Part shown: one piece after another, positions 59,959-62,904 of the stretch
How the letters are laid out: each line of letters starts with the position of its first letter
Numbering within the stretch: the first letter of the stretch is position 1
Source: Dehalococcoidia bacterium
GTDB lineage: Bacteria > Chloroflexota > Dehalococcoidia > Lucifugimonadales > UBA3495
Direction: 5' to 3'
Length of the DNA: 64,000 nt
Assembly: GCA_022450395.1 (NCBI GenBank)
Contig: JAKUQE010000013.1
Location: forward strand, 395 to 64,394
Program-made: the position numbers and the translations under genes
Notes under the pieces: model-generated
Told to the model about the DNA's origin: nothing
The model's input: only the letters and a program-made list of their open reading frames with translations
The model's database searches: none

Positions 59959-61506
59959 CTACTTGCCGTCCTTGATGAAGTCGCTGACCCGCTCGCCGAT
60001 CATCATGGTGGTGACGTTGGTGTTGGCCCGGATGCAGTCGGGCATGATGGATGCGTCTACGACACGCAGACCTTCTAGGCCGTGTACCTTGCCGTACTGG
60101 TCCACCACCGCCATCGGATCCGACGACGGGCCCATCTTGCAGGTGCATGAGATGTGCTGGGAGGTGGTTACCGTGCGAGCTATCCACTGGTCCAAGGCTT
60201 CGTCGGACGCCATTTCGGCGTCGGTTGGGGAGATCCGCTCCTGGATGATGTCTTTGAAGGATTCGTGCTCGCCCAGATCGACGCAGATCCGCACTGACTC
60301 CCGCAACCGGCGGACGTCGGACTCCTCTTTCAAGTAGTTGTAGTCCAGGACCGGTTGGGCCGCGGGATCCGCGGACGCTAATTTCAGTTCACCGGCCCCG
60401 GCGGCCAGGTAGATTCCGCTGGTCATGCGTATGCCCAGGGGCTCCATGCGGCCGCCGCCCTGGTTGACGGGCTGGGTGGCGAAGGACTGCATGGATATCT
60501 TCATGTCGTTACGCAGGTCCGAGTCTCCGGCCGTGTAACGAAGGGTCAACTGCATCCTGGGGGCTAGGCCGTCCAGAGGGAAACCTTCCTTAGTGCGCCA
60601 AGTGATCCACACCGCCGGATGGTCTCTTAGGTTTTGCCCCACACCCGGAGCGTCTTTAACCACTGATATGCCCAGACTACCCAGGTGATCGGCCGGGCCG
60701 ACCCCGGAGAGCATCAATATCTGGGGCGAGCCGATGGCCCCGGAGCTCAAGATTATCTCGTCGCCCTCGACGACAAAGGTCTCGCCGCCGCTCTCCAGTT
60801 CCACCCCGGTCGCCCGGTTTCCCTCAAACAGGATGCGGTGAACCAGGCACTCAGGCCTAATGGTCAGGTTCAAACGGTGTCTTGACTGGTCCAAGTAGCC
60901 CATGGCGGTGCTGATGCGGATGCCGCCGGGATTGTTTAGGGGAGTGGGTCCGACCCCCTCGGAGTCGGGATTGTTATGGTCTGGGCAATCCTGATATCCG
61001 GCGTCGATGCAGGCTTCGTAGAATGCCGTCTGGGCGGGCAGCCAGGTTTCCCGCTTGAAGCGGTGCATGATGATGGGGCCTTCGCTGCCGTGAAAGTCGC
61101 CCGAAAAGTCGGGGTCCGTTTCTACTTTGTTGAAATAAGGGATCAGCTTCTGAAAGTTCCACTGATCGTTGCCCTCCGAAGCCCAGGAGTCGTAGTCCTC
61201 GGGCACCCCTCGCAAGAAGACCTGACCGTTGATGGCGCTGGAGCCGCCGGTGACCTTGCCTCGAGGGACCATCATCGGCCCAGCCTGGTCCGTCGACTTG
61301 CCGATGAATTGCCAGTTGTGGTCGCTGGTCATGATGTCCGCCTCGGTGGCGTAGCCGAATTTCACTTCGTCGGGCAGGTCATCGAAGTTCGGGTAGTCTT
61401 TCCCCGCTTCCAATAGCAACACCGAGCGGTTGGGGTCCTCGGTCAAGCGTGTGGCCAATATGGACCCCGCCGACCCTGCGCCAATAATTATCACGTCATA
61501 TTTCAT
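59959..61506 (-). CDS. GMC-family FAD oxidoreductase (choline dehydrogenase/MftG-like)
   Basis: IIGAGSAG, RGKVTGGSSAING, SPQILMLSGVG, VGQNLRDH, LRVVDASIMP..ANTN. Confidence 0.92.
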   Translation of the reverse strand: MKYDVIIIGAGSAGSILATRLTEDPNRSVLLLEAGKDYPNFDDLPDEVKFGYATEADIMTSDHNWQFIGKSTDQAGPMMVPRGKVTGGSSAINGQVFLRGVPEDYDSWASEGNDQWNFQKLIPYFNKVETDPDFSGDFHGSEGPIIMHRFKRETWLPAQTAFYEACIDAGYQDCPDHNNPDSEGVGPTPLNNPGGIRISTAMGYLDQSRHRLNLTIRPECLVHRILFEGNRATGVELESGGETFVVEGDEIILSSGAIGSPQILMLSGVGPADHLGSLGISVVKDAPGVGQNLRDHPAVWITWRTKEGFPLDGLAPRMQLTLRYTAGDSDLRNDMKISMQSFATQPVNQGGGRMEPLGIRMTSGIYLAAGAGELKLASADPAAQPVLDYNYLKEESDVRRLRESVRICVDLGEHESFKDIIQERISPTDAEMASDEALDQWIARTVTTSQHISCTCKMGPSSDPMAVVDQYGKVHGLEGLRVVDASIMPDCIRANTNVTTMMIGERVSDFIKDGK

Positions 61507-61616
61507 TGCTCGTTCTCCCAGTAAAGTTATGATTCCAACGGCTAACGAGTGGCTCTCCCTCCGTAGCCGTGCCCGGACATCTTGTTGATCTGCGATTAGT
61601 CTGCCTGTCAGCGATT

Positions 61617-61704
61617 CGTCATTCCGGCCCTTCCGCCGAAGGGGAATCCAGGAAACGTGTCCACCAGCTAAGTTTCTGGACCCCGATTTCGATCGGGGTG
61701 ACGG
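61617..61704. repeat. REP-like element (GTCATTCCGG...GGAATCCAG family)
   Basis: cgtcattccggc...ggaatccagg ... ctggaccccga..tcggggtgacg. Confidence 0.65.
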
Positions 61705-61750
61705 CTGGACTCTCGGCCTCTCTGCAATCTTAGTAATTTACGGGTAACCG

Positions 61751-62512
61751 CTAGATCAAAGCGGTGGGGGTTACGATGCCCTCGGTGTCTTCCTCTGTAA
61801 CCGGGTTTAGGGGCGTGATCCCCAGGTCCTGCTCCATGTAATAGTAGATCTGTTTCAGGTGGTGGGTACTATGGCTCAGGATGATGTTCAACAACTCGGT
61901 AACCGTAACCTCCCCGCCATAGTGGGCGGGAACTACCCGGTCGAAGGAGGCGGTGTCGCCGCTCTTCAGGAATCCATCGATGTTGGCCAAGACCTGGTGG
62001 CCATATTGGGTGATGGTTTCAACGGTGGCGACGTCCTTGATACGCACATTGGAGGCCGCCATGTCATCAGTGCTCATGCTGCCCTGCTTGTGGCTGAGCC
62101 AGGCAAGCTCCGGAAAGGAGATGATGTGCACGATGCAATCCCGCACGCTCCAGGGACGCCAGGGCACTTCTTGTTGTAATTGATCGTCGGTAAGCTGCTG
62201 GGTGGCCCGAATGGCGCCATTAAGCACGATGTCGTATTTTTCCGCCAGCCAACTGGTCTTGCTGGACAAGTCAATCTTGACGTTCAGCTTCAGGGCCGGG
62301 ATCAGCTTTTTGGGGTAATAGCCGATGATTACTTCAGCATCGTCGATGATGGTGACCGGCACCGACTTGATGTCGCGGCTTCTCAGGTACTCTACGGCTG
62401 CTTGGTCGGTGGCCAGGTCGTGGTGCTCATACTGAACACCGTTAGACGACAGAAACTCTTCTACCGTCCGGCAGCTGAATCAACCAGGGTTGGTATATAC
62501 ATGAACATCCAT
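61751..62512 (-). CDS. Glutaredoxin/NrdH-like (UxxC) plus DinB-domain fusion selenoprotein, 253 aa, Sec11 (UGA 62480-62482)
   Basis: AAGGAG SD then MDVHVYTNPG-U-FSCRTVEEFLSSNGVQYEHHDL...KSVPVTII, in frame with ORF 61751-62362 (WSVRDCIVHI, HSTHHLKQI). Confidence 0.88.
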
Positions 62513-62607
62513 GGCTCTCTCCTTAGGGAGTTACCGGGGTAGATTAAAGGGTTCTCTGGGATGGTGTCAACATAACCATTAGTTCCACGATTTGTGGGAT
62601 ACACACT

Positions 62608-62688
62608 CGTCATTCCGGAGAAGGCCGGAATCCAGGAAATGTTCGCATCATATACGAGTGCGGACACAAACTTCCCACGGTGGGACGG
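62608..62688. repeat. REP-like element (GTCATTCCGG...GGAATCCAG family)
   Basis: cgtcattccggagaaggccggaatccagg plus a degenerate partner hairpin. Confidence 0.7.
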
Positions 62689-62904
62689 TCAGTCGTATTT
62701 GGCCAGCAATTGCTCCATAGAAACCGAACTTAAGCGTCCTGCTTTGTAATCTTCGACCCGCTGTTCCGCTTCGCGCCCCCATTGGGCGTCGATAGCTTCG
62801 TACCGTTGATCAAGGCTTGCTCGAAGCTGATCGATAATAAAGGCCTTATCCGCGTCCGATAGATTTAGAGCGCGGTCCAGAATATTTTGGCTTGCTACAC
62901 TCAT
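62689..62904 (-). CDS. Putative addiction-module antitoxin (TIGR02574-like), orphan
   Basis: AL.LS..DKA..IDQL.ASL...IDAQW.REAE.R...Y.AG pattern. Confidence 0.75.
   Translation of the reverse strand: MSVASQNILDRALNLSDADKAFIIDQLRASLDQRYEAIDAQWGREAEQRVEDYKAGRLSSVSMEQLLAKYD

Follow-up and report, generated by a model that had tools for sequence, protein, structure and literature searches.

Should an in-frame TGA at the eleventh codon of a gene be read as a stop, which leaves a DinB-only protein, or as selenocysteine (Sec, U), which joins a glutaredoxin (Grx)-like domain and a DinB domain in one chain? This question is raised by a minus-strand gene in a 64,000-nucleotide (nt) stretch of DNA from a Dehalococcoidia bacterium (assembly GCA_022450395.1, contig JAKUQE010000013.1, positions 395 to 64,394), which as a whole is termed here the window and whose first letter is position 1. 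The list of open reading frames made with translation table 11 contains at this place only a GTG-start frame of 203 amino acids (aa; 61751..62362). When TGA is translated as U, the frame reaches 253 aa, hence the N-terminal extension is of exactly 50 codons; the protein starts with MDVHVYTNPGUFSCRTVEEFL, contains the inner motifs SVPVT and ILSHSTHHLKQ, and ends with TALI*. A first-pass annotation of this DNA had described 50 extra in-frame codons, preceded by a Shine-Dalgarno sequence and beginning with ATG, upstream of the listed frame, and the TGA=U translation bears this out. The gene is composed of the following elements.

61751..62512, minus strand: full coding sequence of the predicted Grx(UxxC)-DinB selenoprotein in the TGA=U translation, 253 codons and the TAG stop (61753-61751)
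62519..62524, minus strand: Shine-Dalgarno-like AAGGAG, 6 nt 5′ of the ATG (62512-62510), from direct reading of the sequence
62480..62482, minus strand: in-frame TGA, codon 11, at the first position of U-F-S-C; TGA in 80/80 sequences and aligned with the first Cys of CxxC

Judged by sequence comparison, this is very probably a genuine selenoprotein gene that has been misannotated and that belongs to a family of Grx(UxxC)-DinB fusions. The strongest argument comes from a scan of related loci, in which one genome per species was used; 132 relatives were found and 80 kept, and 79 of these reach the N-terminus (L031 is without it). Codon 11 is TGA in all 79 loci that cover the N-terminus and in the window (80/80 sequences), at identities of 61-95%. 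The motif V-Y-T-x-P-G-U-F-S-C-R-T around the TGA is kept across the 79 loci, with PG-U-FSC present in 79/79, and the ten codons 5′ of the TGA are conserved at the protein level in the orthologous loci. The codon for Pro9 varies among CCT, CCC, CCA, and CCG, which points to selection on the translated peptide, and the Gly10 codon varies synonymously as well. It had been considered at the outset that reads might reveal the TGA as an error for TGC or TGT; this is refuted by the 80 concordant sequences together with an RNA-library contig (X15 record 4; 161 nt, 62372-62532), which runs across the TGA with zero differences from the window.

The genome from which the window comes (359 contigs, 78.6% complete) carries the genes that are needed to decode UGA as Sec. 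The selB, selA, and selD genes score 352.8, 549.4, and 380.3 bits, respectively, all above the curated cut-offs; selD, located on contig C254, itself has one in-frame TGA, and one copy of tRNA-SeC (tca) was found with aragorn. Of the 1920 open frames in the same genome that have 300 codons or more, 541 (28%) end with TGA, thus it is a normal stop there and the genetic code is without reassignment.

The protein read through the TGA is composed of two domains, both of which had been proposed in the first-pass annotation: an NrdH/glutaredoxin-like domain with YTNPG-U-FSC...SVPV and its cis-Pro, and a DinB-like helical domain with candidate metal-binding His residues. Both proposals are borne out, the former by Pfam, Protein Data Bank (PDB), and Foldseek matches, the latter by Pfam scores above cut-off and by a conserved His triad.

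62288..62512, minus strand: NrdH/YruB-like glutaredoxin (thioredoxin-fold) domain, residues 1-75, from Pfam PF00462, NCBIfam, PDB, and Foldseek
62473-62471, minus strand: C14, which forms the predicted redox pair with U11
62359-62357, minus strand: cis-Pro P52
61754..62257, minus strand: DinB-type four-helix-bundle domain, residues 86-253, from Pfam DinB_2 and DinB, AlphaFold, and Foldseek
62128-62126, 61873-61871, and 61861-61859, minus strand: His triad H129, H214, and H218

Pfam Glutaredoxin (PF00462) is matched by residues 3-58 (E 2.3e-9, 37.7 bits; cut-off 22.9), DinB_2 (PF12867) by residues 103-222 (E 4.5e-11, 43.7 bits; cut-off 24.8), and DinB (PF05163) with 33.4 bits (cut-off 23). No NCBIfam model reaches its cut-off for the window protein, and this includes the Grx-like selenoprotein models (Uxx-star families, HUGP/GUXX-star); the best matches are TIGR02196 (YruB), with 61.6 bits vs. 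88.55, and TIGR02194 (NrdH), with 47.9 vs. 85.75, so that by the rule of NCBI the protein is not a member of either family. When 34 Sec and 25 Cys sequences (59 in total) are aligned together, the columns U/C11, C14, P52, H129, G199, and H218 are invariant, and H214, R119, and Q221 are conserved in at least 90%. A structure prediction, which had been named as a check, gives both folds: the AlphaFold2 model built on this 59-sequence alignment (pLDDT 93, pTM 0.88) contains a thioredoxin fold at residues 1-75 and a bundle of four helices (86-105, 123-143, 164-182, and 204-228), with U11-x-x-C14 placed just ahead of helix 12-23 and P52 just ahead of strand 53-56. The N-terminal domain matches by sequence the PDB entries 7c10/7c12 (cGrx1) and 3zij/3zit (BC3987), and in Foldseek the chains of cGrx1 and BC3987 reach template modeling (TM) scores of 0.85-0.96, NrdH being matched as well. 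For the C-terminal domain the Foldseek matches are 2p1a, 1rxq (YfiT), 6iz2 (DR0053), 3dka (YjoA), and 2nsf (maleylpyruvate isomerase MDMPI), with TM 0.67-0.82 on the target; no solved chain found by Foldseek spans both domains.

Homologues with CxxC and the same two-domain layout, which according to the first-pass annotation ought to be sought, do exist. An exhaustive profile-free search among 1.84 billion representatives yielded 422 matches, of which 29 were fetched; 25 of the 29 are full-length two-domain homologues (20-28% identity), and in 25/25 of them both domains are present and CxxC, mostly PGC[ST]SC, is aligned with UxxC, i.e., Cys stands at position 11. Members of this Cys family were found in no fewer than 574 species, for the most part of the Burkholderiales and Alphaproteobacteria; among them are cultured Paraburkholderia, Caballeronia, Ramlibacter, and Acidovorax, through which the function of the fusion can be tested directly. 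The predicted Sec form nearest to it is a Dehalococcoidia locus (L103), which shares 43% identity with the Cys protein P0266, so Sec and Cys appear to alternate within one subfamily.

The in-frame TGA is also found far beyond the close relatives. Of 401 genomes sampled evenly across the class, nine had a match; 9/9 two-domain places contain a single TGA there, and their identities range between 100% and 25%. Of 401 genomes sampled evenly across the phylum, six have two-domain places, seven altogether, and in 7/7 of these one TGA was present. The phylum-sample tally comprises 16 genomes, including the unpublished G604, on which no claim is built. Eight divergent loci have the active sites G-U-FTC, G-U-FHC, G-U-AEC, G-U-ATC, G-U-HSC, and G-U-SSC, and on sequence grounds the Grx-DinB family is composed of several divergent predicted Sec subfamilies. 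One such paralogue resides in the window's own genome (C90:38740-39486, plus strand; locus L096, 2001-2732); it is 37% identical, has RPG-U-FTC, contains one in-frame TGA, and is without a GMC gene (see below) in the surrounding ~2 kb. Two more Grx-like frames with TGA at the CxxC position were noticed in that genome, i.e., C110:4006-4254 (plus strand, EG-U-HFC) and C124:11095-11229 (minus strand, PR-U-SSC), which are probably stand-alone or other Sec redoxins, and the genome seems to be rich in selenoproteins. Two of the 80 orthologous loci (L036 and L064) come from records titled Candidatus Entotheonella and Entotheonellaceae, which belong to a phylum other than that of the window; they are 66-69% identical, keep the TGA, and have no GMC neighbor (see below), which suggests either transfer among sponge-associated bacteria or mis-binning.

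Another line of evidence concerns the RNA that follows the UGA, where the selenocysteine insertion sequence (SECIS) of a bacterial gene would be expected. Work on E. coli fdhF reportedly established a rule of hairpin spacing and of a G/U-containing loop for bacterial SECIS elements. Two hairpins were considered here.

62444..62469, minus strand: SECIS-like hairpin that starts 11 nt 3′ of the UGA, with 11 pairs and loop GAGU, obtained by folding the 60 nt that follow the UGA
62461..62474, minus strand: hairpin CTGCC-GGAC-GGTAG, pointed out in the first-pass annotation; present in the minimum-energy fold of the single sequence and not conserved

In the window the hairpin 62469..62444 has the form GGACGGUAGAA-GAGU-UUCUGUCGUCU, and in the orthologues the lower stem has 5 bp and the upper stem, which carries the loop GAG(U), 3-4 bp, with a variable stretch between the two. 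When its two-helix version was counted over 70 distinct orthologues, 94.8% of the cells were paired. At pair 18-35, GC is replaced by UA in 18 sequences, a compensatory change, and by UG in three; pair 19-34 occurs as four pair types (GU, UA, CG, and AU), and the covariation score was reached by none of 500 shuffles. Hairpins with a GAGU-like apex are also present 3′ of the UGA in the paralogue and in the two other Grx-like genes, while the loop in selD is GGU. Hairpin 62469..62444, whose spacing and G/U-containing loop would fit the fdhF rule, may thus be put forward, with modest confidence, as a candidate for a conserved SECIS element. The CTGCC-GGAC-GGTAG hairpin does follow the UGA as had been noted, but it is not conserved: the two pairs at its inner end are open in 57/70 and 27/70 orthologues, and its covariation does not exceed that of shuffles. 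An Rfam scan of 61300..62800 gave only a chance-level match (P26, E 4.9).

Before the Sec reading can be accepted, two other ways of reading the codon have to be weighed, and for both the public gene calls are of importance. A protein database search found 994 relatives, and among the best 120 only three have a length outside 201-240 aa, the others being shorter than 253; these 120 are named 'DinB family protein', 'hypothetical protein' or 'damage-inducible protein DinB' (with '/glutaredoxin' added in four). Nine of the 12 relatives fetched start within the Grx domain, eight at the Val codon of residue 17 and one at residue 40, and of the three full-length ones, one carries R and two carry W at position 11. 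It could be argued from such calls, which give 203, 214, or 236-240 aa and the name 'DinB family protein', that the TGA is a true stop, that the Grx part survives as an untranslated remnant, and that the product is a DinB-only protein of 203-237 aa made from an internal GTG or ATG, particularly as TGA does work as a normal stop in this genome. Yet the ATG, the Shine-Dalgarno sequence, the ten sense codons, PG-U-FSC, the cis-Pro and the whole Grx fold are retained in 79/79 loci with synonymous changes, the internal starts at residues 17, 40, or 51 fall within the Grx fold, the Cys homologues are translated through position 11 and the full Sec machinery is at hand, which makes a true stop hardly credible. 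The other possibility is that UGA is read through a reassigned code or near-cognate suppression as Trp, Cys, Gly, or Arg, and database entries with W (P0090, P0098, P0140, and P0184) or R (P0087) at position 11 could be quoted for it. The W entries, however, are most simply explained as gene calls made under a table in which TGA is Trp, and TGA ends 28% of the long frames without reassignment. Moreover, position 11 is the catalytic Cys of CxxC in the homologues, a hairpin follows the UGA at canonical spacing, and the same genome has selA, selB, tRNA-Sec, and a selD gene with an in-frame TGA; a standard amino acid at this position is accordingly given next to no credence. What the public calls do reveal is that in ocean Dehalococcoidia (SAR202-type) genomes the gene callers remove the catalytic N-terminus together with the predicted Sec, therefore the functional inventories of marine Dehalococcoidia/SAR202 overlook one probable selenoenzyme and count selenium dependence too low.

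Given that codon 11 is very probably Sec, one may ask what the protein does. In the proposed mechanism SelB and tRNA-Sec would decode the UGA as Sec, aided by the hairpin that begins 11 nt downstream, and U-F-S-C would become the redox centre of the NrdH/YruB-type domain, which a linker of ~10 residues connects to the DinB-type four-helix bundle. The bundle would carry a divalent metal on H129/H214/H218. The literature describes that DinB/YfiT-type enzymes activate a low-molecular-weight thiol in a metal-dependent manner (PMC10950700; PMC5815605), and that two proteins of DinB fold, BstA and MST, act as homodimers that transfer thiols with the help of a metal (thiol S-transferases), the metal being held in most members by three His (PMC10950700). 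By analogy with these low-molecular-weight-thiol S-transferases, the metal site may bind and activate the substrate, the tethered selenolate of U11 would serve as the attacking nucleophile or immediate redox partner, and C14 would resolve the intermediate into a selenenyl-sulfide, which would be re-reduced by an enzyme of thioredoxin-reductase (TrxR) type and not by glutathione. The window's genome has two TrxR-like genes, with 338 and 336 bits vs. a cut-off of 343. One of them (336 bits) is the body of a 415-codon frame at C101:24597-25760 (minus strand), whose N-terminus is Grx-like and without a stop codon, the second TrxR-like gene lying 1.4 kb off; this fusion frame may encode the reductase that serves the Grx-like selenoproteins. 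It is tentatively proposed, as something that could well turn out otherwise, that the protein is a self-contained thiol/selenol-dependent detoxifying or reducing enzyme. The earlier suggestion of a Sec redoxin and a DinB domain in one chain holds as regards the architecture, whereas the term 'thiol transferase' can be upheld only as a family-level expectation, since the scores with the NCBIfam models of mycothiol and bacillithiol transferases remain well under the cut-offs. A bolder version, in which the fusion is the thiol-cofactor-independent counterpart of DinB S-transferases in bacteria where no synthesis genes for glutathione, bacillithiol, or mycothiol were found, with tethered U11 taking the place of the small thiol at the metal site and being recharged by TrxR, is considered unlikely.

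The surroundings of the gene offer a further lead, since a flavoenzyme gene lies directly downstream.

59959..61506, minus strand: GMC-family FAD oxidoreductase, MftG-like, 515 aa, 244 nt 3′ of the selenoprotein stop; Pfam GMC_oxred_N and GMC_oxred_C
62689-62904, minus strand: 71-aa protein matching Pfam Unstab_antitox (putative addiction-module component), E 1.5e-11

The GMC neighbor scores 398.4 bits against the MftG model TIGR03970 (cut-off 387.45). A GMC homologue is present within 3 kb in 56/80 loci, 41 times immediately downstream in the same orientation (median gap 97 nt), nine times directly upstream on the same strand (L075, L087-L095), and six times on the opposite strand. The adjacency is a lead, and the GMC enzyme is a possible candidate for a functional partner. 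The genome contains about 16 GMC paralogues (at least 48% identical), eight of which are above the MftG cut-off, i.e., the one at 59959-61506 in the window and those on contigs C168, C310, C146, C77, C74, C115, and C55. For the MftC maturase the best match in this 78.6%-complete genome has 52.6 bits vs. a cut-off of 265 and none is above it, so either the MftG model over-reaches in this lineage or the GMC enzymes serve another redox cofactor. The upstream neighbors, an antitoxin-like gene and an amidohydrolase gene, are conserved in 0/80 and 2/80 loci, respectively, and no obvious toxin gene is beside the Unstab_antitox protein in the part that was read. Beyond GMC, the only recurring neighbor of the Sec family is a dienelactone hydrolase-like protein (named by eye; 17/80 loci), and in 80 neighborhoods of the Cys family the commonest real neighbor is a periplasmic solute-binding protein (23/80; named by eye), which offered no lead to the function. 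A scan of 61400..62750 for promoters and terminators gave shuffle-level counts and one terminator-like hairpin (62685-62673), located after the Unstab_antitox gene and 5′ of the selenoprotein gene.

Both sides of the gene carry a hairpin repeat, GTCATTCCGG-loop-CCGGAATCCAGGAAA (61617-61657 and 62606-62640), the 12-nt core of which occurs five times in the genome vs. about 0.5 expected, and related strains have 117 other letters in place of 61523-61642. The repeat resembles a REP-like dispersed element placed at junctions that differ between strains, and many short RNA-library contigs match the repeat only. With regard to transcription, words were sampled from 61400-62700; 14 DNA runs each contain at least 97% of them, and six metatranscriptome runs from six studies contain 24-41%. 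The selenoprotein gene is covered by contigs from four metatranscriptome libraries; one of these contigs (X17 record 14; 2214 nt) stretches between the 5′ end of the GMC gene and 62573, a break common to three runs.

A number of observations weigh against the reading of the gene as a Sec enzyme with thiol-type chemistry and a conserved setting. The full-length database relative P0087 has Arg at the Sec position (HPG-R-FSC) and the 55-aa fragment P0196 has Ser; either could reflect a one-base change of TGA, a sequencing error, or an inactive allele. As for the hairpin, RNAalifold on 71 sequences found no consensus structure in the 66 nt after the UGA; the covariation consists of two base pairs, in a coding region and among related sequences, and the apex overlaps the conserved E-E-F-L codons, hence the support for a SECIS element is rated as modest. 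RNA libraries may contain DNA, and the contigs show neither expression level nor strand. The thiol-transferase models are far from reached (NF047843, MST, 22.4 vs. 170 bits; PRK13291, YfiT, 13.5 vs. 160), which lowers the chance that the protein is an MST or Bst and not the chance that it works like one. Regarding small thiols, gshB and bshC had no match and mshC none above cut-off, which is weak evidence in a 78.6%-complete genome in which gshA was not searched. Finally, GMC adjacency is concentrated in the closer relatives, is missing in 24/80 loci, and was found within ~2 kb in 0/8 divergent paralogue loci; with about 16 GMC paralogues in the genome, it may be plain synteny. Taken whole, the explanation given here, i.e., a misannotated Grx(UxxC)-DinB selenoprotein, is nevertheless considered likely.

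Two further alternatives accept the selenoprotein and differ in its task. It might be a dedicated partner of the adjacent MftG-like flavoenzyme, which scavenges a reactive product (peroxide, aldehyde, or quinone) or exchanges electrons with it. The 56 loci with a nearby GMC homologue, 41 of which have it directly downstream and nine directly upstream on the same strand, one RNA-library contig that joins both genes, and the lack of a terminator-like site between them are all in line with such a partnership; against it, the adjacency tracks relatedness, a two-gene contig does not show a single transcript, the genome has about 16 GMC paralogues, eight of them above the MftG cut-off, and the Proteobacterial Cys family has no conserved GMC neighbor, so that a dedicated partnership is rather improbable. 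Alternatively, Sec11/Cys14 and the three His might form a soft-metal or metalloid site (Hg, As, Cu, or Zn) of a non-catalytic sensor, chaperone, or sequestration protein, since the UxxC pair and the conserved His triad lie in one compact model and several catalogued selenoproteins, as listed in Table 1 of PMC13188914, are metal-binding or related to mercury or arsenic. No metal-resistance genes adjoin the locus, though, where the neighbors are the GMC oxidoreductase, the antitoxin-like gene and the amidohydrolase gene, and the N-terminal domain is nearest to the catalytic redoxins cGrx1, BC3987, and NrdH; a purely metal-binding role is regarded as still less probable than the GMC partnership.

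If the bolder, thiol-cofactor-independent version is true, one chain would perform a complete cycle of attack, resolution, and release on electrophiles, peroxides, or organohalide-like substrates, possibly on products of the MftG-like flavoenzyme. This would be a new catalytic logic for the DinB superfamily as well as for selenoproteins, operating in SAR202, which is among the most abundant deep-ocean lineages. The union of a UxxC redoxin with a His-triad DinB domain also gives a hint of how thiol-transferase-like chemistry might proceed in bacteria that lack the classical small thiols.

How, then, does the protein relate to known systems? In architecture it resembles, as an analogue only, the cytosolic glutathione S-transferases (GSTs) and proteins of the E. 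coli Grx2 type, in which a thioredoxin-fold N-terminal domain is followed by an all-helical C-terminal domain. Many GSTs appear in Foldseek at probability 0.9-1.0, but over the whole chain their TM is 0.26-0.31 with a root-mean-square deviation of 13-17 Å, so only the N-terminal domain truly matches, and the helical domain of the window protein is a DinB bundle with a putative metal triad, not a GST C-terminal domain. The closest system for the N-terminal half is cGrx1 of Clostridium oremlandii (7c10, 7c12), the best PDB sequence match (residues 2-73, E 7.5e-10; TM 0.90-0.96, 40-41% identity). It is natively a selenoprotein; in its U/C-P-X-C site the first residue, Sec in the native protein, is catalytic and the second, a Cys, is resolving (PMC7642778). 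It is a stand-alone protein of ~84 residues that has U-P-x-C and is said to be reduced by glutathione, whereas the window protein has U-F-S-C, is fused to a DinB domain of 170 residues, and comes from an incomplete genome in which no glutathione synthetase was found. NrdH, YruB, and BC3987 (TIGR02194, TIGR02196; 3zij, 1h75, 4fiw) share the fold and the layout of CxxC and cis-Pro, but they are single-domain Cys proteins. With the DinB/YfiT superfamily, i.e., YfiT/BstA, MST, and the mycothiol-dependent maleylpyruvate isomerase, the protein has in common the Pfam match, the four-helix bundle, and three conserved His; the characterized members are without a fused redoxin or Sec, and neither the MST nor the YfiT equivalog is matched by the window protein at cut-off. 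The Cys-type Grx-DinB proteins of Burkholderiales and Alphaproteobacteria, on which the literature searches found no paper, are the nearest in overall design: they have the same two-domain layout within 245-276 aa, the cis-Pro, the His triad, R119, Q221, and the C-terminal G-x-x-x-P tail, and differ in being 20-28% identical, in having PGC[ST]SC, in lacking a conserved GMC neighbor, and in belonging to other phyla.

As to selenoproteins, 'Glutaredoxin (Grx), PF00462, UxxC' is a catalogued and experimentally verified family, and the GOS paper describes an unresolved 'Grx-like' class (pfam00462, UxxC, 42 sequences), which might contain fragments of the Grx-DinB family. The first-pass annotation took the fused architecture to be one not known as a characterized selenoprotein, and it is indeed absent from the 119-family Table 1 in a 2026 review (PMC13188914), as it is from the NCBIfam models at cut-off. 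The word 'DinB' has 0 occurrences in PMC13188914, PMC12013277, PMC2398784, and PMC9312934, and full-text searches on selenoproteins or selenocysteine with DinB, glutaredoxin, or SAR202, and on glutaredoxin-DinB fusions in Chloroflexi, returned nothing on this protein. Sec-glutaredoxins and the DinB superfamily are thus known already, and what is unlisted is their fusion with predicted Sec; new are also the several divergent subfamilies, the second Sec paralogue, the frequently adjacent MftG-like GMC gene, and the coverage by metatranscriptome contigs. Measured against the 119-family inventory, the Grx-DinB architecture with its several predicted Sec subfamilies would be an addition to the selenoprotein catalogue.

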